A DNA stretch of 64,000 nucleotides, from NCBI GenBank assembly GCA_964406895.1, contig CAYOTK010000005.1:7484-71483 (forward strand). Direction: 5' to 3'. Numbering within the stretch: the stretch's first letter is position 1; each line of letters opens with the position of its first letter. Positions 25,811-50,436 of the stretch are shown here, piece by piece. The notes under the pieces were generated by a model, which saw nothing but the letters and a program-made list of their open reading frames with translations, did no database searches and was not told where the DNA came from. The stretch comes from an uncultured Candidatus Saccharibacteria bacterium. Lineage in GTDB: Bacteria > Patescibacteriota > Minisyncoccia > Phycocordibacterales > PALSA-1337. A program made the position numbers and the translations under genes.

Positions 25811-26836
25811 GTGCATAAAATGCAAATACAAGAAAATGTAAATTTGGCTCAATATACAACTTTCAAAATCGGCGGACCGGCCAAGTTTTTTTGTGCTGTT
25901 AAAAATAAAAAAGATATTATCGATGCAGTTGATTTTGCCAAGAATAAAAATTTGAAAATAATGCCTTTGGGTGGAGGTTCCAATATATTGGTTTCTGACA
26001 ATGGTTTTGATGGTTTGATTGTTAAGAATGAAATTATGGGTATTGATATAAAAGAAGAAAAGGATATTGTCATAATTTCTGCCGGAGCTGGAGAGCTTTG
26101 GGATGATCTCGTTTTGTTTGCTGTCAAAAGGAATTTGAGTGGTTTGGAAAATCTTTCTGCTATTCCCGGAACAGTTGGGGCAGCGCCCGTACAAAACATT
26201 GGTGCATATGGTGCTGAGGTTGGTCAAACAGTTCACAAGGTTTTCGCTTATGATTGTGATAAAAGTGAATTTGTAGAACTAAACAATCGACAGTGCAACT
26301 TCGGTTATAGAAACAGTGTTTTTAAATACAATAAACATCGATATATTATCGTTATGGTTCAATTTACGTTGAAATGTAATGCTAAAACCAATATTTCTTA
26401 CAAAGATTTAAAACACTATTTCGTCGATAGGACTGATTCACCAAGTTGTATGGAGGTTCGTAATGCTGTTATTCATATTCGTGAGAATAAATTGCCAGAT
26501 TGGAAGAAGTGGGGTACTGCGGGTTCATTTTTCAAAAACCCAATTATAAGTAAAGAAAAATTCCAAGAACTCAAAAAACAATATCCAGATTTACCAGGTT
26601 TCGAAGAGTCTAGTGGATATGTGAAAGTTTCGCTTGGTTGGATATTAGATAAGATTTGTAATGCAAAGGGCTTGAAATATGAGAGAGCTAGCACTTATGA
26701 CAAGCAGGCACTTGTTATTGTCTCAGAAATGGGTGCAAAAGCCGATGAGGTTGTGGGTCTTTCTTTGAAGCTAATAAATCAAGTCAAAGAAAAGACAGGA
26801 ATTATAATTGAATCAGAGGTTGAGTGGGTGGCTTAA
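25811..26836 (+). CDS. murB: UDP-N-acetylenolpyruvoylglucosamine reductase
   Basis: It has the FAD-binding N-terminus LAQYTTFKIGGPAKFF, the PLGGGSNIL motif and the MurB C-terminal domain. Confidence 0.75.
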   Translation: MHKMQIQENVNLAQYTTFKIGGPAKFFCAVKNKKDIIDAVDFAKNKNLKIMPLGGGSNILVSDNGFDGLIVKNEIMGIDIKEEKDIVIISAGAGELWDDLVLFAVKRNLSGLENLSAIPGTVGAAPVQNIGAYGAEVGQTVHKVFAYDCDKSEFVELNNRQCNFGYRNSVFKYNKHRYIIVMVQFTLKCNAKTNISYKDLKHYFVDRTDSPSCMEVRNAVIHIRENKLPDWKKWGTAGSFFKNPIISKEKFQELKKQYPDLPGFEESSGYVKVSLGWILDKICNAKGLKYERASTYDKQALVIVSEMGAKADEVVGLSLKLINQVKEKTGIIIESEVEWVA

Positions 26837-33570: not shown

Positions 33571-33616
33571 TTTAATATTAATTATTTATAGTTCGTCTAT
33601 CCGAGATAGTCATAAA

Positions 33617-33916
33617 TTAGGCCGTATCTCGGATGTCTCCATAGTCATCAATGTGTTTGACTTTCAATGTTTTAATTTTCTTAACCTTCTTTGGTATGTA
33701 TACTTTATCATAATTTGATCGAATTTTCCCTATAAGAAAGTCAATATCTTCGCGTTTGTATACTCGATAATTATTTAGAGGATGACGTAATGGTTTGAGC
33801 TTGCCAGACTTATCCCAATTACGCAGGGTAAGTGCAGTTACACCAAGCAAGGACGCTGCCTCCTTTATTGATATAAGTTCTTTGTGACTGTTCGACATGC
33901 AATGATTATATATCAT
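33617..33916 (-). CDS. Small HTH DNA-binding protein (MerR/excisionase-type HTH_17)
   Basis: ISIKEAASLLGVTALTLRNWDKSGKLKP…YRVYKREDIDF is an HTH_17-like motif. The gene is divergent from the giant protein gene. Confidence 0.55.
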   Translation of the reverse strand: MIYNHCMSNSHKELISIKEAASLLGVTALTLRNWDKSGKLKPLRHPLNNYRVYKREDIDFLIGKIRSNYDKVYIPKKVKKIKTLKVKHIDDYGDIRDTA

Positions 33917-34391
33917 AAAACTATTACAGAAAAGTTTTAAGTATCACAGATTAAAGAAATAGCGTCATGGTTGTCAGTTGATAGATGTGCGTGCAATGTC
34001 ACTTGAACAAAATCAGGCGGTGGGGATACAAGATAACAACGGATAATTATAAATAAGCCAAGCATTTAATTAACCAAATACATTATGAAACCTATATAAA
34101 CATTACTAGACCGTAATAAACAAATTGTCGAAAAATGTTGATTTTATAACCAATCGCTCTAAAAATTATTATATTAATCAGTATCGGTTTACTGTTGTTG
34201 GAAAGATGAAGTGTGTCAATTTTAAAATTTTTGTGAGTCATTTTTGTAAATTTTTTTGTGATTATTATCTCGGTCGAGTATTGGATGATCATAAATATTT
34301 AATAGTTTGTTGATATCATTAATATTTTTTATTTGATATTTTTTATTAGGGATTTTTTTAAATTAGCGCTTATCCACAGTTTTTTTTGCTC

Positions 34392-34403
34392 GTGACTTGA
34401 TAT
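34392..34403 (+). promoter_or_regulatory. Extended -10 element (TGATATAAT) immediately upstream of the giant gene start
   Basis: cgtgacTTGATATAATttttatgaATG. The -10 ends ~14 nt before the ATG at 34415, with no obvious SD. Confidence 0.3.
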
Positions 34404-34414
34404 AATTTTTATGA

Positions 34415-37400
34415 ATGAAAGATACATTAATCATCGACGGAAAGGAATTCATCTCGTCTCGCCGAGCTGCCGAGATGACCAAGTACACCAACGATTATGT
34501 TGGACAACTTTGTCGTCAATCCAAAGTTGTTGCCAAGAGATTTGGGAGGGTATGGTTTATTGACAGAGATTCAATATTACAGTATAAAAAGAATCAGGAT
34601 AATTTACTTGGAATTTCAAATTTTGATGTTCGAGTTGATGACGCTCCAATTCTCAAAACTGTTGAGCCTGATAATTCGTTATTAGATACTTCTCATCAAT
34701 CAAAATTATCTGATCAAAATAATAAACCCCAGATAAAGAGTCAGAGTGACATAGTTTGGGACTTCAAACATTTTGAGGATGTTTCTCAAATTAAAGATTC
34801 AAATACTAAAAAGGAATTAGAAACTGCTTTAGTCAATATTAAGGGAAGAGCAAATAGGGCCATCGAAACTTTTGGAAAGTCATTACCGACAATTTTAGTT
34901 GCCATATTGCTTTCTGCTGGATCAGTTTTTTCTGCCTATTCATTTTCGTATCCAGATCAAGTTAATGACTTTATAGAAAAAAATCGTTCGAGAACAAGTA
35001 TAATTGTTTCTCAATATTCAGCGATCAAGAATCAATTTAATGTCAATGAAGGTCAGACAGCAAACATTATTGATTCTTCAATTAGTGATGTGAAGGATTT
35101 TGGTGTGTCTGCCTACATTGGATTCAGAGATTTTATTGTTTCGATATTTGGTACTAAGATAAAAACAAATAATAATCAATTTGTTAATACTCAAATTTAC
35201 ACCACACCAAACACTCCACCCATCACTACAATCATAAATCTTTCTAAAAAATCTTCATCTCAGACATCAGGCATAACAAATCAAAGTTTCAATTATTATG
35301 ATACTGGTTCGTATAGTTATCTGAATCAAAAAATTGATTCTTTGCGAGAAGATTTTAATAAATCTCTGTGGTTTGAAAAAGAACAAAACTACAGGATAGT
35401 AGAGAGTGTAAGTAAAACATCTCTGAATAGTAGTTCAAACAATCAAACTCAAGTTACGGATTTGTCTCAATTGACTGGTACTCTCGGAATAGGTCATGGT
35501 GGAACGGGTGTAGCGTCATTGTTATCGGGATTAATATATTCTGATGGTACTTCTGCTCTGAATTCGACTACATCTCCTTTGGTTGGTTCCATTTTTGCAT
35601 CAAGTACAATTGCTAATAATATATTCTTGGGTAATGTGGGCGTTGGCACAACTTCTCCTCTTTCTAAGCTTGATGTGTACGGAGATCTAATACTTTCTGG
35701 ATTGTCTCGTTATGTTAATTTTGGTGATGTTTCTGGTTCAAGTGGTTATGGTATTAGAGATAATGGAGGCATAATAGAATTTAAGAATACTGGCGGAACA
35801 TGGCTTGGTATTGGTTCTGGTGGAGGCGGTGGTTCTGATGGAAATTGGTCATATTTCAATGGTTCTGGAATAAGACTCGCCACAAGTTCCAATACTGTTT
35901 TGGTTGGCGCCAACTCTACGACTACATCGAGCAAGCTAGAAGTTATAGGTTCTGGATATTATTCTGGTAATTTAGGAATTGGCACAACTTCTCCTTGGAG
36001 AACATTATCTGTAAAAGGAAATTCTGATCTTGGTAATAATGCTCTGGCTGGCTCATTTACCGCCACATCAACAACCGCTTCTGTATTTCCTTATGCATCA
36101 TCTACTGCTGTAACAGTCTCTGGTAATCTTTATTTGAATTCTTATAACGGACCACTTCAGGCCAATAATGGTATTGTGTCTGCTACTACATCTATAGGGG
36201 TTGTTTACGGTGGAACGGGAGTCTCTACATTTGGTCAGGGTTGGATTTATTCTTCCGGTGGAACAACTGCTCTTGCGGCTTCAACGTCACCAACAGTGAA
36301 TTATTTGGTTTCTACTTCAACTACAGCAACTTCCACATTTGCTGGACCTATTTCTATAATTGGTTCTTCGGGACTAAATGTTCTTACTAATGGTCATGTC
36401 GGTATCGGCACATCAACGCCTGTCGGAAGTTTGTATGTTCCTGATCTGGTAACTCAAGCAATAGCATTTCCTTCGGGAGCAAATATTACATATCAGAGCG
36501 GATACAATGCTTATACAAACTTTAGTTCAGGCATAGGTATTGCTTCAGTGCCTTTTGCTACAGTAAACATTGATACTCCAAACAAGGTTGCATTATCTAA
36601 TATTTCGACGATTCAGTCCGGAGAATTAAACGTAAGATCAGGTGGCACTTTCGGTACAAAGACTGATTATACAACGGGAACTTTGCCAAGCGGAATATAT
36701 GTATCAGATATAAATAATGATGGAAAGAAAGATGTAATAACTGGTAACAATGGTAGTGACAACATATCTGTATTTCCTGGTAATGGAGATGGAACTCTTG
36801 GTTCTCGCACAAATTATTCTACTGGCACCGGATCTGGTCCGGCATTTGTGACAGCGGCTGATCTGAATGGTGACGGTTTCAATGATATTGTCGCAGCAGA
36901 TAATGCGTCAACAACAATGTCGGTCTTTATTAATAAAAAAGACGGAACATTTTTGGCGCACGTTGATTATATTTCAGGAACAACTCCTGGTGGAATAACA
37001 ATAAATGATTTCAATGGTGATGGAAAATCAGATATAGCTGTTTCAAATTATGGATCGAATACAATATCAGTTTTCATAAATAATGGCGACGGAACTTTTG
37101 CAAGTAAGGTGAATTATACAGTGGGTTCAGCGCCTACATATATAACTAGTGCAGATGTAAATGGCGATGGAAAGATCGATATTATATCTCCGAATTTCTC
37201 TTCCAATACTGTTTCTGTGCTCATGAATAATGGCAATGGCACATTTGCTACAAAGGTTGATTATGTAACAGCTGCCGGCCCGCAAACATCTGATGTCGGA
37301 GATGTAAATGGTGATGGAAAACCAGATATTGTAGTAGGAAATTACACTGGAAATAGCGCCTCTGTATTTCTAAACAACGGTAACGGTACTTTTGCTGCTA

Positions 37401-40400
37401 AGGTTGATTACACATTAGGTATTAACCCCGTTGATCTTCATCTCGCAGATTTTTCTGGTGATGGTAAACCTGACATTGCCGTTGTGAATTATACTGATAG
37501 TACTGTTTCTGTACTCATAAATAATGGCGACGGAACTTTTGCAAGTAAGGTGGATTATTCTACGAATACAGGACCATCTGCTGTTGCGATTGGAGATCTA
37601 AATAGAGATGGTGCCCCTGATATTGTTGTCGCTGACACGGACATAAACAAGGTTTCAGTTTTGTTAAATCAAACAAGTTCACTCTTGTATGCTCAAGCAA
37701 GTACAAATCGTGTTGCGATTGGTACTTCTACACCATACTCCAAATTCTCTGTATGGGGTACAGGAACCGGAACAAATAGATTGTTTGATCTTGTAAATTC
37801 TGCTTCAACAACGATTGCTTCATTCCTTGAAAATGGCACAGGTTATCTCCTTGGAAATATCGGAGTTGGTACTACATCTCCATATTCCAAATTAGCAATT
37901 ACAAATTCTTCTGCATCACAACCAGCTTTGAGTATTTATGGTTTCAATTCACAAACATCTCCTTTGATGCTTGTGGCTTCGACTACGGGTTCAGCTACAT
38001 CAACAGCATTTATTATTGATAATAATGGCAAGGTTGGTGTTGGCACATCATCACCTTATGTTCAATTGAGTGTGGCTGGTATTGGAGCATTCGATAGCTT
38101 GAATATAAACAGTAATGCTACTTCAACTTTTGTAGGAGGTATTCAGGCTAAGGCTCTAAACATAATAAGCACAACAGCAAGTTCAACGTTTGGAAATGGA
38201 ATAAGTTTGAGTAATGGTTGTTATGCAATAAATGGAACTTGTATTGGTGCTGGAACAATTGATGGTGCTGGGCTTGCAAACAAGTTAGCATTTTGGTCTG
38301 GAGCTTCTACAATCTCTTATAACAACAATCTTTCTTGGTTGAATTCTAGTAGTAGATTTGGAATCGGAACAAGTACACCGAATTGGGATTTGCAAGTCGC
38401 TTCGTCGAGTGGGGCTACAATAGCACTTACAGATACTTCTGCTTCAGCAAATACAAAACATTGGACGCTATCTTCTTTGGGTGGTAATTTCTATCTCTCT
38501 ACAAGCTCTGATTCTCTCAGTGCAAGTTCTAATTATATGTGGTTCGATACCAATAATTATGGTACATATTTGGGCAAGGATGCGGGTCGATTTAATTCAA
38601 TTGTTCCTGATTACGCTCAATACAATACTTTTGTTGGTTATGCTTCTGGACACGGCCCAAGCAGTTGGATTTCTGATAATAATACCGGTGTCGGTGCCTT
38701 GTCTCTGTACTCAGCTACAACTGGATATGACAATACTGCAATTGGTTATATGGCTTTGTATAACAATGTCGATGGTGATCAAAATATTGTGATTGGTAGT
38801 AATACTGGCACGAACATAGTAAATGGAAGTAGAAACATTATTATTGGTAGTAATATTGATGCCCCGTCTGATAATGGTTCTCTTTTGAATATAGGTAATA
38901 TTATTTATGGTAACAATATAGACGGATCATTAAGTACAATTTCTTCAGGTAATATTGGTATTGGTACAACTTCACCTGGAGCAAGATTCTCGATTAGTGG
39001 TGCTTCTGGAGGTTCGGTGCCGTTATTTGCAATTTCTTCTTCAACTGCTGGTTTTGCAACTTCAACATCTTTGATTGTGGATGCAAACGGCAAAGTCGGC
39101 ATTGGCACAACCACTCCATATACTCAGCTATCAGTAGCGGGAAATATTGCAGCAACAGGTCTAACATTGTCAGGAATAACTGGCTCAACACAATGTTTGA
39201 GAGTTAACGCTTCAGGAATTGTTTCTGGAACAGGTGCAGATTGTGGCACTTCTTCTGGTGCATCGTATGATTGGTTACAACAAACAAATACATTTGGTGT
39301 TAATTCTCTAACCCCAACTACAACAATACCAATATGGATCAAATCAACCGCCACATCAACATTTGCGGGTGGCATAGAATCATGGGACAAGATCGGCGCT
39401 CCATACTTCAATGCAACATCATCAACGGCTACCTCTACGTTTAATGGAGGTTTGATCGCTGCAAACGTAGGCAATTCATACGGTTTGTATGCTTTGTCTA
39501 GTACTGGTTATGTCGGTATTGGTACCAACTCACCATTTTATCCATTGTCAGTCATAACAAATGCCGACAACCTTGGTTTGCAGATAAGAAGAAATTCAGG
39601 TTCGACCAATACAACCAATGAAATTGGTTTCAGAGTGGCAAGTACAGAAGGATCAAATCTTGCAGGAATTAGATCTACTAGAGTTGATGCTGGCGCAGGT
39701 CATAGTCTTTCTTTCTTCACAAACCCTTCTGGCAATACACCAACAATAAGAATGACTCTTGCAAGTACTGGTGAAGTGGGTGTGGGTTCAACTACTCCTT
39801 GGGCCAGATTGTCTGTTAATGGTTCAAATGGCGGAACTACACCTTTGTTTGTGGTTGCATCTTCAACATCTGCCTATGCAACATCAACAGTGTTTATGAT
39901 TGATCAAAATGGTCAGGTTGGTATAGGTTCTAGTTCACCTATGTCTGTTTTCGGTATAGTTTCTCCTTACAAAGCTAATGTATCATTTGGAAATGGAACT
40001 GTTACAGGATATACCGGTATCGATAATGTTGATTCTGCTATAGATCTTGGAACATATTCCGCTCATCCTGTAAGGCTTGAAACAAGTGGTGTTGAAAGAT
40101 TGAGAGTATTATCGACAGGAAATATTGGTGTGGGTACAACATCTCCTTGGACTAATTTTGCTATTTCGGGATCAGCAGCACAATCTACTCCAATATTCGC
40201 CATCTCTACATCAACTGCTGGTTTTGCAACTTCCACCGCTTTCATTATCGACTCAAACGGCAAAGTTGGTATTGGCACAACCACTCCATATACTCAGCTA
40301 TCAGTAGCAGGAAATATTGCAGCAACAGGTCTAACATTGTCAGGAATTACAGGATCAACTCAATGTTTGAGAGTTGATGCCTCCGGAATTGTTTCTGGAA

Positions 40401-42589
40401 CAGGCGCAGATTGTGGCACTTCTTCTGGTGCGGCATACGATTGGCTACAACAATCAAACACATTTTCTGTTAATTCTCTAACCCCAACTACAACAATACC
40501 AATATGGATCAAATCAACCGCCACATCAACATTTGCGGGTGGTATTGAGTCGTGGGACAAGATTGGAGCGCCGTATTTCAATGCTACGTCCTCGACGGCA
40601 ACTTCTACATTTAATGGAGGGTTGAGGGTTGGAACAGGCGTTAATGGTTTATTTGCGTTCCAGAATGGATTTGTTTCTGTTGGAACAAGTTCTACTAACG
40701 CTGTATTTTCTATTCATTCTAATACAAGCAGTCAAGCGCCTCTATTTATGATTGCTTCTTCAACAAACGGCGCCGCAACGACGACCGCCTTCTTTGTTGC
40801 TGCAAATGGTACGATTGGTGTCGGAACTGCTCCAGTAGCTGGCTTTCAAATGAATATTACAGGAGCTTCAAGAGCAGGACAGGTTTTCGCTACAAGTCAG
40901 ATGAGTTCTCCAAACTATCTTTTAACTAATCCAGGCACTGTAAATAGTTATGCCTCTATGAATGGCGGCATATATTCTACAACCAATGGCGGTATTTATC
41001 CTTTCAACAATACGATGAACCTTATTATTTCCCCTCAGACTGGTGGTGGCACACCGAGGGATATAGTATTTGCCGTTGGTTCGACAACTGTTTCTACGGT
41101 GGTTATACGAGGTTCATCATATAACGTGGGTATTGGTACGACATCTCCATATGCCAAACTTTCAGTTATTGGTTCTACTGCCGCCACAACTACATTCGCT
41201 GTCTATGGTTTCAATTCTCAAACAGCACCGCTTGTGTTGGTTGCTTCGACAACAGGATCAGCTACATCTACAGCATTTATTATCGATAATAATGGTCAGG
41301 CAGGTATCGGCACAAGTACACCATGGAGAACACTGTCTTTGACTGGCACAGCAGCAATGCCAGGACTTACAGTGGCAGGCGCTTCCGGCTCAGCTGTCTG
41401 TCTTGCTGCTGGCGGTGAATTGCAAGTCAATTCCGGAGCGCAAACATGTACAGTTTCTTCAGCCAAATTTAAGCATGATATAGAGTCACAGATATCCGGT
41501 CTAGATACAATAAGAGCCTTGAGACCGGTATCATTTAAATACAACAATGATTCTTCAGGATCTGAGAGATTGGGTTTGATAGCAGAAGAAGTAAACAAAG
41601 TAGATCCAAGATTGATATTTACGGGTAACGATAACGAACCACGAGGTGTACGTTATGAAGATTTGACTTCAGTTCTTACAAGAGCTGTTCAGGAACTAGA
41701 TACAAAGGTTGATGATAATGCTTCCACAACTCTTGATTTCATGAAGTCTTCGAAGTTAAGTGTAGATTCTTCTTTGAATAAATTTACAGAGTATGACAAT
41801 CAATTTACAGATATAACTAAACAAATATCAGAGATGAATATTAGGATTTCAGATATTGCTTCTAGCACCTCAACAATTGCAAGCACAACGATAGATGCAA
41901 TATCTCATGATCAATCATTCATAGAAGTTATAGCAAATAAGGTCAAAGAATATATCGCTTCAGCTGGTGAATGGGTTGTATCTAAGATTTCTTCGGTCCT
42001 CGCTGTATTCGATAGGGTAGAAACCAAGACCGCAGCAGTAAGCAATGGTATAGAAATGACAGATAGTTCAACCAAAGAAGTTTGGTGTGTGAGAATACAG
42101 AATGGCGATTGGAATAAATTGCGTGGTAAATGCGGTGATGTAACCAGTGAAATTAAACCAGAAGTAACACCAGTACTAAATAATATAAATATAATAAACA
42201 CTGAGACAGCAACAACTACAATTGTTACAAATCCAGATAATGCTTCTACAACACCTGTTTCATCTTCAACAAGTACAGACGAGACGACAAATCAAGTAAA
42301 TCAGATTAATACCAACGAATCCACAACAACACAAAATACCACACCTACAACCCAAAAAGATGAAAGTGCCTCATCAAACAAGACTGAGAATCAAGCTCCT
42401 GTAACAACCCCGCAACCAGTTGAAAATGTTACAACAGCAAAAACAGAAACAGTTACGACACCAGATCCATCTACAGCAAGTTCTGGAACTGTTTCTGGTG
42501 GTAGTAATACCGAGACGGTGAATAGTTCAGGTAGTACGTCCTCTTTGAGTGGTAGTGTTTCGTCTGATTCGGGATCAGTAAATCCATAA
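34415..42589 (+). CDS. Giant (2724 aa) surface fibre protein with six regions (N to C): an HTH-like cytoplasmic N-terminus, a single TM helix, an FG-GAP/VCBS beta-propeller, long GIGTTSP-type fibre repeats, a peptidase S74 intramolecular-chaperone domain and a Ser/Thr-rich tail
   Basis: It is one uninterrupted ORF. The TM helix is LPTILVAILLSAGSVFSAYSF (~34880-34945). Eight or more repeats of D-[IV]-N-x-DG-x-x-D-[IV]…N-x-[IV]-S-V-[FL]-x-N-x-G-[DN]-G-T-F lie at ~36640-37680. SSAKFKHDIESQISGLDTIRALRPVSFKYNNDSSGSERLGLIAEEV lies at ~41455-41710. Confidence 0.8.
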   Translation: MKDTLIIDGKEFISSRRAAEMTKYTNDYVGQLCRQSKVVAKRFGRVWFIDRDSILQYKKNQDNLLGISNFDVRVDDAPILKTVEPDNSLLDTSHQSKLSDQNNKPQIKSQSDIVWDFKHFEDVSQIKDSNTKKELETALVNIKGRANRAIETFGKSLPTILVAILLSAGSVFSAYSFSYPDQVNDFIEKNRSRTSIIVSQYSAIKNQFNVNEGQTANIIDSSISDVKDFGVSAYIGFRDFIVSIFGTKIKTNNNQFVNTQIYTTPNTPPITTIINLSKKSSSQTSGITNQSFNYYDTGSYSYLNQKIDSLREDFNKSLWFEKEQNYRIVESVSKTSLNSSSNNQTQVTDLSQLTGTLGIGHGGTGVASLLSGLIYSDGTSALNSTTSPLVGSIFASSTIANNIFLGNVGVGTTSPLSKLDVYGDLILSGLSRYVNFGDVSGSSGYGIRDNGGIIEFKNTGGTWLGIGSGGGGGSDGNWSYFNGSGIRLATSSNTVLVGANSTTTSSKLEVIGSGYYSGNLGIGTTSPWRTLSVKGNSDLGNNALAGSFTATSTTASVFPYASSTAVTVSGNLYLNSYNGPLQANNGIVSATTSIGVVYGGTGVSTFGQGWIYSSGGTTALAASTSPTVNYLVSTSTTATSTFAGPISIIGSSGLNVLTNGHVGIGTSTPVGSLYVPDLVTQAIAFPSGANITYQSGYNAYTNFSSGIGIASVPFATVNIDTPNKVALSNISTIQSGELNVRSGGTFGTKTDYTTGTLPSGIYVSDINNDGKKDVITGNNGSDNISVFPGNGDGTLGSRTNYSTGTGSGPAFVTAADLNGDGFNDIVAADNASTTMSVFINKKDGTFLAHVDYISGTTPGGITINDFNGDGKSDIAVSNYGSNTISVFINNGDGTFASKVNYTVGSAPTYITSADVNGDGKIDIISPNFSSNTVSVLMNNGNGTFATKVDYVTAAGPQTSDVGDVNGDGKPDIVVGNYTGNSASVFLNNGNGTFAAKVDYTLGINPVDLHLADFSGDGKPDIAVVNYTDSTVSVLINNGDGTFASKVDYSTNTGPSAVAIGDLNRDGAPDIVVADTDINKVSVLLNQTSSLLYAQASTNRVAIGTSTPYSKFSVWGTGTGTNRLFDLVNSASTTIASFLENGTGYLLGNIGVGTTSPYSKLAITNSSASQPALSIYGFNSQTSPLMLVASTTGSATSTAFIIDNNGKVGVGTSSPYVQLSVAGIGAFDSLNINSNATSTFVGGIQAKALNIISTTASSTFGNGISLSNGCYAINGTCIGAGTIDGAGLANKLAFWSGASTISYNNNLSWLNSSSRFGIGTSTPNWDLQVASSSGATIALTDTSASANTKHWTLSSLGGNFYLSTSSDSLSASSNYMWFDTNNYGTYLGKDAGRFNSIVPDYAQYNTFVGYASGHGPSSWISDNNTGVGALSLYSATTGYDNTAIGYMALYNNVDGDQNIVIGSNTGTNIVNGSRNIIIGSNIDAPSDNGSLLNIGNIIYGNNIDGSLSTISSGNIGIGTTSPGARFSISGASGGSVPLFAISSSTAGFATSTSLIVDANGKVGIGTTTPYTQLSVAGNIAATGLTLSGITGSTQCLRVNASGIVSGTGADCGTSSGASYDWLQQTNTFGVNSLTPTTTIPIWIKSTATSTFAGGIESWDKIGAPYFNATSSTATSTFNGGLIAANVGNSYGLYALSSTGYVGIGTNSPFYPLSVITNADNLGLQIRRNSGSTNTTNEIGFRVASTEGSNLAGIRSTRVDAGAGHSLSFFTNPSGNTPTIRMTLASTGEVGVGSTTPWARLSVNGSNGGTTPLFVVASSTSAYATSTVFMIDQNGQVGIGSSSPMSVFGIVSPYKANVSFGNGTVTGYTGIDNVDSAIDLGTYSAHPVRLETSGVERLRVLSTGNIGVGTTSPWTNFAISGSAAQSTPIFAISTSTAGFATSTAFIIDSNGKVGIGTTTPYTQLSVAGNIAATGLTLSGITGSTQCLRVDASGIVSGTGADCGTSSGAAYDWLQQSNTFSVNSLTPTTTIPIWIKSTATSTFAGGIESWDKIGAPYFNATSSTATSTFNGGLRVGTGVNGLFAFQNGFVSVGTSSTNAVFSIHSNTSSQAPLFMIASSTNGAATTTAFFVAANGTIGVGTAPVAGFQMNITGASRAGQVFATSQMSSPNYLLTNPGTVNSYASMNGGIYSTTNGGIYPFNNTMNLIISPQTGGGTPRDIVFAVGSTTVSTVVIRGSSYNVGIGTTSPYAKLSVIGSTAATTTFAVYGFNSQTAPLVLVASTTGSATSTAFIIDNNGQAGIGTSTPWRTLSLTGTAAMPGLTVAGASGSAVCLAAGGELQVNSGAQTCTVSSAKFKHDIESQISGLDTIRALRPVSFKYNNDSSGSERLGLIAEEVNKVDPRLIFTGNDNEPRGVRYEDLTSVLTRAVQELDTKVDDNASTTLDFMKSSKLSVDSSLNKFTEYDNQFTDITKQISEMNIRISDIASSTSTIASTTIDAISHDQSFIEVIANKVKEYIASAGEWVVSKISSVLAVFDRVETKTAAVSNGIEMTDSSTKEVWCVRIQNGDWNKLRGKCGDVTSEIKPEVTPVLNNINIINTETATTTIVTNPDNASTTPVSSSTSTDETTNQVNQINTNESTTTQNTTPTTQKDESASSNKTENQAPVTTPQPVENVTTAKTETVTTPDPSTASSGTVSGGSNTETVNSSGSTSSLSGSVSSDSGSVNP
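39041..39454. repeat. Internal 414-bp coding repeat, copy 1 (~95% identical to 40211-40624)
   Basis: It contains long identical runs, e.g. caaccactccatatactcagctatcagtagc and tctctaaccccaactacaacaataccaatatggatcaaatcaaccgccacatcaacatttgcgggtgg. Confidence 0.8.
40211..40624. repeat. Internal 414-bp coding repeat, copy 2
   Basis: Same as copy 1, offset 1170 bp and in frame. Confidence 0.8.
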
Positions 42590-49311: not shown

Positions 49312-49337
49312 TTAACGGTTTTACCGTTGGTTAATAC

Positions 49338-49368
49338 AAAAAACGACTTCGCAAGAGGTCGTTTTTTG
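49338..49368 (+). terminator. Rho-independent terminator downstream of the RRM gene
   Basis: AACGAC-ttcgcaagag-GTCGTT stem followed by TTTTTT. Confidence 0.6.
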
Positions 49369-49400
49369 TAATTGTTTGGGATTTGAGATAAAATAATATC

Positions 49401-50300
49401 ATGACCCCCCAAACCCCCGAAACACCACAAACCCCACCATCCACTCAACCCAGAGAAGGTACTCCAGAACCTACAGTCACAAACATGGCACAATCTCAAT
49501 CTCCTGAAAAACCACAAAAAACACAAGAAGAACTAAGAGAAATATGGCAACAAAGAATACAAGATATACGTAAACGAGGGGAAGAAATGCTAGATGAATA
49601 TGAGAAAAAAGTAAAAGAAGGAGAATTCAAAGATAAACCAGGTGAAGAACCAGGAAGTGGTAATAAAAGAGATATAGAAGCACAAGCAGAAATCACTCAA
49701 GTAATTGAAAGAGGAGAAAGAATGAAGAATAAGCTAGATAGTAATGAAGAACTGCCTCAGGAATCACCAGATATATTACCATATCTCGGAAAACAATATG
49801 ATTTGGAATTATCTCTAGGTATGTTCGGCACCCCAGAACACGGATTCAAGGGTATATACATTAATCCAAGAGATCAAGACTACGAAACACTCAAGAAGGA
49901 CACTGACCCAAAAAAGTTTGGTGAATATACTCTAAACCCAGACATGCAAAACGTAGACTTCAAAAACATACCAGAAAACAAGATACACATAATCGACCTA
50001 CCACAATTCGCAGGAAAACCACGAGCTGAAGTTATTGAACACATCCTTAAAATGTACCCCAACCTCAAACTTCCAGGACTGGAATACTGGGAATGGTTAG
50101 GAAAAAACCCAACCAAAATCCCAAAAAAAATACAAGACACAACACTATGGTTCTACTTCCCAGGTTCCCTCGTTCGTAATTCCGGTGGCGATTGGTATGT
50201 TCCTTGTGCCTACTGGCGTGGTTCAAGTTGGAATCGTAGTGCGCATTGGCTTAGCGGTTCTTGGGATGCTGATTACCGTTTCGTCCTCCTCGAGATTTGA
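49401..50300 (+). CDS. Hypothetical protein with Pro/Thr/Gln-rich low-complexity N-terminus
   Basis: It is an ORF of 299 aa. The N-terminus is MTPQTPETPQTPPSTQPREGTPEPT…, followed by a charged coiled region and a Trp-rich C-terminus. No recognisable family. Confidence 0.4.
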   Translation: MTPQTPETPQTPPSTQPREGTPEPTVTNMAQSQSPEKPQKTQEELREIWQQRIQDIRKRGEEMLDEYEKKVKEGEFKDKPGEEPGSGNKRDIEAQAEITQVIERGERMKNKLDSNEELPQESPDILPYLGKQYDLELSLGMFGTPEHGFKGIYINPRDQDYETLKKDTDPKKFGEYTLNPDMQNVDFKNIPENKIHIIDLPQFAGKPRAEVIEHILKMYPNLKLPGLEYWEWLGKNPTKIPKKIQDTTLWFYFPGSLVRNSGGDWYVPCAYWRGSSWNRSAHWLSGSWDADYRFVLLEI

Positions 50301-50394
50301 TTCTTGCCCAGCCCGAAGGGCTGGTGATGTCTTCCTGCCTTTTTGATTCTTGAATTCTTGAACTTTGATCTGCGATTTGGTTTTTTTATTTGAA

Positions 50395-50436
50395 GGTCGA
50401 ACCTCCATGAGGACCGACCCTGATTTTGTTTTTTTA
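50395..50436 (+). terminator. Rho-independent terminator (nested GC stem + T-tract)
   Basis: GGTCG-aa-CCTC-cat-GAGG-ac-CGACC followed by ctgaTTTTgTTTTTTT. Confidence 0.5.

Follow-up and report, generated by a model that had tools for sequence, protein, structure and literature searches.

The 64-kb stretch of DNA analyzed here (contig CAYOTK010000005.1 of an uncultured Candidatus Saccharibacteria bacterium, about 36% G+C) is referred to as the window, and all positions are window coordinates. We focused on a giant gene at 34415..42589 on the forward strand, whose product of 2724 amino acids (aa) is predicted to join a cytoplasmic winged helix-turn-helix (wHTH) domain, a single transmembrane (TM) helix and a very long ectodomain that resembles phage tail fibres and carries a Peptidase_S74 chaperone near its C-terminal end. 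The protein belongs to a large family in Patescibacteria, whose genes occupy a fixed chromosomal position and often stand behind a shared promoter box. The gene, its promoter and the parts of its product are listed below, with distances in nucleotides (nt).

34415..42589, + strand: complete open reading frame (ORF) of 2724 aa plus stop codon, from ORF calling and translation; identical product in two other assemblies
34370..34378, + strand: TTATCCACA box, centred at about -39 from the inferred transcription start; the only perfect copy in the 64-kb window
34401..34406, + strand: TATAAT -10 element, 8 nt before the ATG, from sequence reading
34421..34600, + strand: predicted cytoplasmic wHTH of the excisionase/MerR type, aa 3-62; net charge +5 over aa 1-65
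34601..34879, + strand: low-complexity, predicted cytoplasmic linker, aa 63-155; family linkers have a median of about 100 aa from the last HTH to the TM helix
34880..34936, + strand: single TM helix, aa 156-174, SLPTILVAILLSAGSVFSA, from hydropathy scan and translation
34937..36646, + strand: juxtamembrane stalk and proximal tail-fibre-like repeats, aa 175-744, with GGTG and G-I-G-T-T-S-P motifs, from motif map and translation
36647..37684, + strand: seven-bladed FG-GAP (integrin-alpha-like) beta-propeller, aa ~745-1090, from Pfam, a 147-nt repeat family and loop motifs
37685..41404, + strand: distal fibre, aa 1091-2330, with G-I-G-T-T-S-P / A-T-S-T-F repeats, from motif map
41456..41833, + strand: Peptidase_S74 intramolecular chaperone/auto-cleavage (ICA) domain, aa 2348-2473, from Pfam, alignment, AlphaFold2 (AF2) and Foldseek
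41456-41458 and 41471-41473, + strand: checked codons of the predicted catalytic Ser2348 and of Lys2353
41948..42139, + strand: conserved module behind S74, aa ~2512-2575, made up of a helix and a small beta unit that holds two conserved Cys (…GIEMTDSSTKEVWCVRIQNGDWNKLRGKC), from alignment and AF2
42200..42586, + strand: Ser/Thr/Asn/Pro-rich low-complexity tail, aa 2596-2724 (129 residues), 46% Ser+Thr, from composition

The giant gene and its predicted surface fibre

The original prediction, made from this DNA alone, had described a single 8.2-kb ORF with one TM helix and an S74 domain, and all three claims were borne out. The frame runs unbroken through 2724 codons with zero internal stops, and the same protein, 100% identical, was found with the same neighbours on two independent Joint Genome Institute (JGI) metagenome contigs. 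One of these, L001, is 99.76% identical to the window over 24.2 kb, and none of the 59 differences falls within the giant gene, while the 2081-aa gene that follows it carries 25. A frameshift or assembly chimera is very unlikely, because the protein is identical in independent contigs and the gene contains zero differences. The variation against L001 is sharply uneven: the 1-kb murB (25811-26836) has 30 of the 59 differences and the 8.2-kb giant gene 0.

The TM helix lies at aa 156-174, and its flanks carry a charge of +3 on the N side and 0 on the C side, which fits an N-in orientation under the positive-inside rule. Because no signal peptide was found in the window protein and extracellular-type domains lie beyond the TM helix, the data fit a predicted N-in/C-out (type II) topology.

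The ectodomain carries a propeller that is matched in Pfam by FG-GAP_3 (8e-63, in seven stretches) and FG-GAP (3e-23). Seven D-x-N-x-D-G-x-x-D loops of the Ca-binding type recur with a 49-aa period at aa 765-1069, as in the FG-GAP repeats of integrin alpha. The FG-GAP propeller had been anticipated, with eight blades and VCBS repeats; the loops give seven blades, and VCBS had no Pfam match in the giant protein. The fibre repeats of the GIGTTSP/STATSTF type were likewise foreseen correctly, while their extent of about 1300 aa was set too small, since 13 [VIL]G[VI]G[TS]xxP motifs stretch from aa 408 to 2303 and flank the propeller on both sides. In the distal fibre, N-x-x-I-G motifs recur within a Gly/Asn-rich stretch (aa ~1386-1500), and there is also an internal segmental duplication, 39024-39455 versus 40194-40625, which spans 432 nt at 88% identity with copies 1170 nt apart. 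This recent duplication shows that growth of the fibre proceeds through duplication of repeat units. Matches in the phage collection are remote: they cover no more than 42% of a 981-aa query, at 26-37% identity, and are to tail-fibre and 'chaperone of endosialidase' proteins; searches of PHROGs and NCBIfam gave nothing useful for the fibre region. The Pfam scan of the giant protein detected no YadA-type C-terminal anchor, no LPXTG and no type I secretion system (T1SS) signal. The C-terminus instead consists of S74, a small module and a Ser/Thr tail, so that the protein is not a trimeric autotransporter adhesin with a YadA-type anchor.

The S74 domain matches Pfam Peptidase_S74 with 36.7 bits (cut-off 22) at aa 2348-2400, covering profile positions 1-56 of 58. 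Its S2348-S-A-K-F-K2353 aligns to S-D-R-R-I-K of the phage T5 fibre chaperone pb1 (6f45), and the spacing of Ser2348 and Lys2353 is the Ser-x4-Lys spacing of the MYRF catalytic dyad S578/K583, likewise found in endosialidases (PMC3742443). When 21 homologues are aligned with the domain, conservation of the Ser position is at least 90%, and the homologues inspected retain the Lys at i+5. The AF2 model built on the S74 alignment has a core with a predicted local distance difference test score (pLDDT) above 90 and shows a small beta domain followed by a helix of about 60 residues (aa ~2414-2473), which is the arrangement of the ICA fold. Foldseek matched this model to the ICA domain of MYRF (7dc3, E 6.5e-5, probability 1.0) and to the endoNF chaperone (3gw6, probability 0.95). 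By profile, predicted catalytic dyad and modelled fold, we take the S74 domain as genuine.

About 324 residues follow the Pfam match. The first ~75 of them are the chaperone's own long helix, as Pfam models only the first ~58 residues of the domain, so the earlier remark that S74 is not C-terminal was partly an artefact; a conserved post-S74 extension in this lineage nevertheless stands. Behind the chaperone come a Ser/Thr-rich helical linker, the conserved module and the Ser/Thr tail. The module is kept in 15 of the 22 aligned homologues, its beta part has a pLDDT of 82-89, and its consensus reads …G-I-E-M-T-D-x-x-T-G-x-x-Y-C-V-x-I-x-N-G-E-W-x-K-x-x-G-x-C before the Ser/Thr tail, equivalents of which are carried by the homologues. 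No Pfam family matched it in the proteins scanned. It also occurs behind a different, non-S74 pre-domain (…VPVALTGRVPVKVS..GPI..GD…) in P0016, P0019 and the 1995-aa P0156. Since it is found both after S74 and after an unrelated pre-domain, the alignments mark it as an independent unit of the fibres of this lineage. L029 carries this C-terminal module as well. In P0008, P0009, L003, L019 and L076 there are two tandem S74-like units near the C-terminus, the second being more divergent.

The original prediction had further asked whether homologues in related genomes keep the fusion of HTH and TM helix. They do, and several have the whole HTH-TM-fibre-S74 layout: local profiles found HTH and S74 in one ORF, with or without the C-module, in L003, L015, L019, L023 and L076, and in L003, L015, L019 and L076 the order of HTH, TM helix and S74 is that of the window protein. 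Pfam confirmed S74 in L003 (93 bits) and both HTH_17 (29.8 bits) and S74 (74.3 bits) in L076, where an Ig-like surface domain lies past S74. Between the window protein and L003 the HTH is 62% identical and S74 plus the module 34%, while the middle reaches only about 25% with many gaps. Judged from these comparisons, the ends are conserved and the ectodomain is fast-evolving or hypervariable between genomes.

The wHTH-TM family, its promoter box and its neighbours

The N-terminal segment had been proposed to resemble an HTH, and structure prediction agreed with this. The AlphaFold model of aa 1-75 has a pLDDT of 84.5 and the order b-b-a-a-b-b-a, with the strand, helix-turn-helix, beta-hairpin wing and C-terminal helix of a wHTH fold. 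Its structural neighbours are excisionases and MerR-type domains, all of them DNA-binding winged helices, and include RacA (5i44/5i41). A profile of 311 copies of the family domain matched the window protein with 91.8 bits (E 4e-28) and had no other match in the window; a PHROG named 'DNA binding protein' was matched weakly (E 2e-4). Some relatives exceed the Pfam HTH_17 threshold (P0023 55 bits, P0065 41.7, P0156 40.6, L076 29.8). No Pfam match to a winged helix of the OmpR/PhoB type (Trans_reg_C, as in ToxR/CadC sensu stricto) was found in the window protein. Y24, D27, Y28, G30, Q31, L32, R34 and W47 are invariant or almost so across the family, and the conserved residues sit mostly in the second helix, which is the recognition helix of the winged-helix fold. 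From the fold, the charge and the conserved promoter motif we infer that the domain binds DNA.

A word-indexed search with aa 1-248 returned just one relative, and it took an exhaustive profile search, built from residues 1-70 and one relative, to reveal the family, with 5960 cluster representatives at E<=1e-3 and 3191 at E<=1e-10. A third word-indexed search with the domain alignment gave short fragments only, which were used as rows for structure prediction. We examined 155 family proteins, namely the 150 best-listed matches and a few others carrying the domain. Two tandem wHTH copies are present in 152 of them, exactly one TM helix follows the HTH in 145, about 100 residues past the last copy, and the median extracellular tail is 52 residues. 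The named members are called 'helix-turn-helix domain-containing protein [Patescibacteria]', and NCBI names some relatives 'tail fiber domain-containing protein'. With its profile match, linker and single TM helix the window protein is a member of this family. What had looked like an unusual one-off architecture is therefore one case in a large family of Patescibacteria.

A scan of one genome per species found the domain encoded at no fewer than 575 (>=575) genomic places, and our locus analyses cover the best 80. These lie in metagenome-assembled genomes of Patescibacteria (Paceibacterota/Parcubacteria, Taylor-, Kaiser-, Lloyd- and Nomurabacteria, Minisyncoccia and 'Saccharibacteria'-labelled bins); the one locus labelled Gammaproteobacteria is probably mis-binned. 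The 80 loci hold 117 ORFs with the domain, 27 with two copies (all short, ~280-375 aa) and 90 with one copy. Leaving out the two contigs identical to the window, 26 of 88 one-copy genes have at least 1000 aa and the longest at least 3397 aa, although 53 of the 88 run off the end of the fetched DNA. The ectodomains of the family range from ~15 to >3300 residues. In 23 of the 80 loci a gene with two HTH copies and a TM helix (2xHTH-TM, ~300-370 aa, tail of ~45 aa) is directly followed by a one-copy gene (1xHTH-TM) of very variable length, while in 45 loci the one-copy gene stands alone as in the window. The pairs include those of L068, L025, L050, L075, L048, L018, L060, L031, L052 and L065, and further ones in L042, L045, L067, L032, L053, L073, L077, L022, L070 and others.

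The position of these genes is fixed. In most of the 80 loci gatB lies directly upstream, and beyond it come obg (44 loci), secA (21), the AI-2E transporter (17) and NUDIX. The window order secA, NUDIX, AI-2E transporter, obg, gatB matches that of related loci, and the same neighbours occur in 44-68 of the 80. The window gene shows both marks of the family, standing beside gatB-obg(-secA) and behind a TTATCCACA-type box.

Analysis of k-mers in the upstream regions gave the motif [TC]TATCC[AC]CA. The form TATCCACA precedes 30 of 53 long one-copy genes, with a maximum of 10 in shuffled controls. Moreover, 57 of the 133 motif occurrences in ~1.1 Mb lie within 150 nt upstream of a family gene on its coding strand; such regions make up ~0.7% of the search space, which corresponds to a ~60-fold enrichment. 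The box stands 22 nt upstream of the -10 element of the window gene, and in related loci, likewise, the box is followed after ~20 nt by the -10 element and then, 7-9 nt on, by the ATG, with the box orientation fixed. A TTATCCCCA variant is common among family promoters, and several loci have two boxes 22-23 nt apart. The box accompanies mainly one-copy 'QLCR' genes, the class of the window protein. A position near -39 is typical of activator sites. The mRNA of the giant gene is probably leaderless or near-leaderless, because the -10 element ends 8 nt from the ATG, and the similarly short distance in related loci suggests leaderless transcripts there too. A sigma-70 consensus scan found no -35/-10 pair at the TATAAT of 34401-34406 and no TTGACA-like -35 there.

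The sequence TTATCCACA is identical to the DnaA-box consensus. An origin of replication (oriC) was considered as an explanation of the box and rejected, for the window has one perfect box, 19 one-mismatch sites versus 24 expected and a monotonic GC skew. Neither the window nor any of the 80 loci was found to contain a dnaA gene. Another element, CCGAGAT / ATCTCGG, also recurs near the family promoters, in the window at ~33598-33612 and ~34265-34275 and also in L044, L036, L049, L037 and L027. It sometimes forms a perfect inverted repeat (GCCATCTCGGCT..CCGAGATGGC) and may be an operator of the MerR-type neighbour or of another regulator.

The gene order in the window is murB, secA, NUDIX, AI-2E transporter, obg, gatB (- strand), a 99-aa MerR-type gene (- strand) and the giant gene, and further downstream a 2081-aa surface protein, an RRM protein, LOG, MFS, rbfA and infB (IF-2). 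The locus is core chromosome and not a prophage. The two genes next to the giant gene are as follows.

33617..33916, - strand: divergent 99-aa MerR/HTH_17-type regulator gene; Pfam MerR 42.6 bits, HTH_17 29.4 bits
42630..48875, + strand: downstream 2081-aa gene; N-terminal TM/signal, right-handed beta-helix, cadherin-like/Big_9 and 2x PG_binding_1 (Pfam)

The N-terminal domain of the giant protein had been said to resemble the 99-aa protein. The likeness holds at the superfamily level (hhalign probability 33%) and a closer kinship does not, as the 99-aa protein has no match to the wHTH-TM family profile and stands outside that family. A homologue of its gene occupies the same position in four related loci. 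In the 2081-aa protein a hydropathy scan placed a TM helix at aa 9-27, and both PG_binding_1 domains are C-terminal. No terminator-like site was found in the 40 nt between the giant gene and the 2081-aa gene, and the two are probably co-transcribed. Further downstream, ~1.1 kb of the window (49315-50420) is replaced by ~80 nt in the JGI contig, which is otherwise ~99% identical. This segment holds a 299-aa ORF (49401-50300) with no family match, and its start coincides with a strong hairpin (49335-49370, 16-bp stem), behind which lies a T-poor tail.

A proposed mechanism and its alternatives

We regard it as fairly probable that the giant protein is a type II-anchored, self-chaperoned trimeric surface fibre of a Paceibacteria-like cell, with a cytoplasmic wHTH acting at the membrane. 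The fibre is the best-supported part, with its signal-anchored tail-fibre-type repeats, Ca-binding propeller and S74 domain near the C-terminal end, and the host-attachment fibre of the original prediction is a reasonable reading of a tail-fibre-like, hypervariable ectodomain between two conserved ends. First, three chains would be exported via Sec. Second, as in the fibres of endosialidase and T5, S74 would nucleate folding of the trimer, which would run from the tip to the membrane. Third, once trimeric, S74 would cut the chain at Ser2348, by homology with endosialidase, T5 pb1 and MYRF (PMC3742443, PMC8326128), and so shed 377 residues comprising the chaperone, the C-module and the Ser/Thr tail. 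Three TM helices would hold the remaining trimeric fibre of ~2350 residues, and its propellers would serve as heads that bind a ligand or the host. The wHTH would stay tethered and, like the DNA-binding domains of transmembrane transcription regulators (PMC10269533), work at the membrane. It would bind DNA, most plausibly the TTATCCACA box in the promoters of its own family. In a cell this small, such binding would either couple expression to the state or abundance of the fibre or tether the base of the fibre to the nucleoid. By analogy with RacA, a nucleoid-tether role for the wHTH is possible.

Several findings weigh against this account. The wHTH of the window protein scores 16.2 bits against Pfam HTH_17 (PF12728), below the cut-off of 27 (E 0.013). 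A conserved protein partner could just as well account for the near-invariant helix DY[IV]GQL[CA]R. As the box matches the universal DnaA box, DnaA rather than the wHTH may bind it. Moreover, the box variants (CCACA/CCCCA; A or C at position 7) do not co-vary with the helix variants (QLCR/QLAR), and the box is missing from most 2xHTH family genes. A family-profile search of the window gave no 2xHTH partner gene, such as is present in 23 of the 80 loci. Finally, a folded conserved module beyond S74, joined by an Ig-like domain in L076, is odd for a part that would be discarded.

This last point would suit a possible, if rather unlikely, alternative, in which S74 is a permanent trimerisation module or a conditional cleaver and the C-module and Ser/Thr tail are retained as the functional distal tip of the fibre. 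The conservation of the module, also behind the non-S74 pre-domain of P0016, P0019 and P0156, would agree with a retained tip, and so would the Ig-like surface domain after S74 in L076 and L023 and the tandem S74-like units of the five proteins named above. However, nearly every homologue has both the catalytic Ser and the Lys at i+5, which argues for a retained cleavage chemistry.

It is somewhat more doubtful that the N-terminal HTH fold serves as a protein-interaction or anchoring module, as in RodZ, with the TTATCCACA box being a site at which DnaA or another regulator times expression. A putative recognition helix almost invariant in thousands of proteins is unusual for regulators of diverse targets, the family is fixed beside housekeeping genes, box and helix show no co-variation, and the identity of the box with the DnaA consensus favours binding by DnaA. 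The tight restriction of the box to family promoters and the invariant recognition helix favour, in turn, the family's own wHTH. The box is concentrated ~60-fold at these promoters instead of being spread like DnaA sites, no dnaA gene or box cluster is nearby, and the domain is basic, with close structural neighbours that are all DNA-binding domains, several of them solved on DNA.

A wider signalling scheme appears unlikely to us. Here the fibre of the window protein, and those of its long relatives, would report their folding, cleavage or binding state across the TM helix, the wHTH would bind the TTATCCACA box from the membrane together with the adjacent 2xHTH-TM paralogue, and the family would form a lineage-wide class of transmembrane regulators that has adopted a DnaA-box-like operator. 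If true, a single polypeptide would link host contact to gene expression in episymbiotic ultra-small bacteria, and the wHTH-TM family would represent previously unrecognised transmembrane transcription regulators across the lineage.

We consider it improbable that the protein is a contact-sensing regulator in which host binding triggers regulated proteolysis and frees the wHTH as a soluble transcription factor. The original prediction had raised such a release of the N-terminus, and it is true that a DNA-binding-type fold lies on the cytoplasmic side of a huge ectodomain, that the long disordered linker between HTH and TM helix could be a protease substrate and that the conserved box could be a target. 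However, S74 is the sole self-cleaving element, and its cleavage would be unable to free the HTH because it lies outside the membrane, ~2170 residues from the TM helix. A MYRF-like release by S74 was excluded on this topology, and a released regulator would need a separate protease. No protease gene is associated with the locus across the 80 genomes, the ectodomain of most family members has just ~45 aa and nothing to sense with, and known transmembrane regulators act without release (PMC10269533). An origin as a prophage remnant, a domesticated phage tail-fibre gene or an assembly chimera, instead of a gene for a cellular membrane protein, is extremely improbable and was rejected on synteny and on reproducibility across assemblies: S74 and the repeats are modules typical of phage fibres, and there are remote matches to phage tail-fibre genes and the NCBI name 'tail fiber domain-containing protein' of relatives, but the gene lies between murB, secA, obg, gatB and IF-2, rbfA with no phage genes and hence not among phage structural genes, core cellular neighbours recur at a syntenic position in ~70 related genomes, the gene is identical in three assemblies, the best phage identity of 26-37% concerns parts of the protein only, and the N-terminal HTH-TM anchor is a feature of a cellular family.

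Each of the components is already known, that is, HTH_17-type wHTH domains, transmembrane regulators as a class, FG-GAP propellers and S74 chaperones. In the searchable literature we found no description of a cytoplasmic excisionase-type wHTH combined with a TM helix and an S74-bearing, tail-fibre-like ectodomain, nor of how large the wHTH-TM family is and that its genomic position is fixed, nor of its shared DnaA-box-like promoter element. Patescibacteria account for a large part of bacterial diversity, and their host attachment and gene regulation are mostly unknown. A phage-type self-chaperoned fibre used as an N-terminally anchored cellular surface organelle is a testable lead, and so are the membrane-anchored excisionase/MerR-type HTH proteins, which form a very large unnamed family encoded at a fixed chromosomal position. 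The shared promoter box, in turn, would tie the family to DnaA control or to self-regulation from the membrane. If true, any of the three leads would provide a handle on surface biology and regulation in organisms with very few recognisable regulators.

Comparison with known systems

The giant protein shares S74, the Ser-x4-Lys dyad and a preceding repetitive fibre with the K1F/NF endosialidase (3gw6) and the T5 L-shaped fibre pb1 (6f45), and trimer folding followed by self-cleavage is the common logic that would be expected from these phage spikes and fibres. Unlike in phages, the gene lies in the core chromosome, and the anchor is a TM helix with a cytoplasmic wHTH instead of a virion-attachment domain. 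The protein also differs in its FG-GAP propeller and in the conserved extra module and Ser/Thr tail past S74. Trimeric autotransporters and RTX/FG-GAP adhesins likewise have a very long repetitive fibre, a Ca-binding propeller and a Gly/Asn-rich N-x-x-I-G stretch, and by analogy with such giant adhesins an adhesion role of the window fibre is likely. In contrast to them, the window protein is predicted to be anchored by an N-terminal signal-anchor and folded via the S74 chaperone.

RodZ resembles the window protein in combining a cytoplasmic HTH with a TM helix and an extracytoplasmic domain; its HTH is of the XRE type and binds MreB. RacA, a structural neighbour of our N-terminal domain, has a MerR-type wHTH without a TM helix and tethers chromosomal DNA to the membrane via DivIVA. 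Neither RodZ nor RacA carries a fibre.

MYRF is the only well-studied protein that joins a DNA-binding domain (DBD), a TM helix and an S74/ICA domain (PMC3742443, PMC3742440, PMC8326128), and it gave the best structural match of the S74 model (7dc3, E 6.5e-5). The order of the domains differs. MYRF has DBD-ICA-TM, and cleavage frees the DBD, whereas the window protein has HTH-TM-fibre-S74, with the HTH at aa 3-62, the TM helix at aa 156-174, then the ectodomain, and S74 from aa 2348, and cleavage could not free the HTH in the MYRF manner. The DBD of MYRF is Ndt80-like, and that of the window protein is an excisionase/MerR wHTH.

Transmembrane transcription regulators that act without release are already known as widespread (PMC10269533), and the main text of that survey names neither HTH_17 nor Patescibacteria. 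Carrying its wHTH (aa 3-62) and TM helix (aa 156-174) in one chain, the window protein has the architecture of this class, a cytoplasmic DBD with at least one TM helix. ToxR, TcpP, CadC and VtrA (PMC10269533) likewise have an N-terminal cytoplasmic winged-helix DBD, a single TM helix and an extracytoplasmic domain. ToxR-like regulators often have a bitopic partner next door, and an adjacent 2xHTH-TM gene is found here in 23 of the 80 loci. Unlike in the ToxR group, the wHTH is of the HTH_17 type and not OmpR/PhoB, its DNA binding is predicted, and in place of a small sensor the protein bears a tail-fibre-like ectodomain of 2550 residues with a predicted self-cleaving chaperone.

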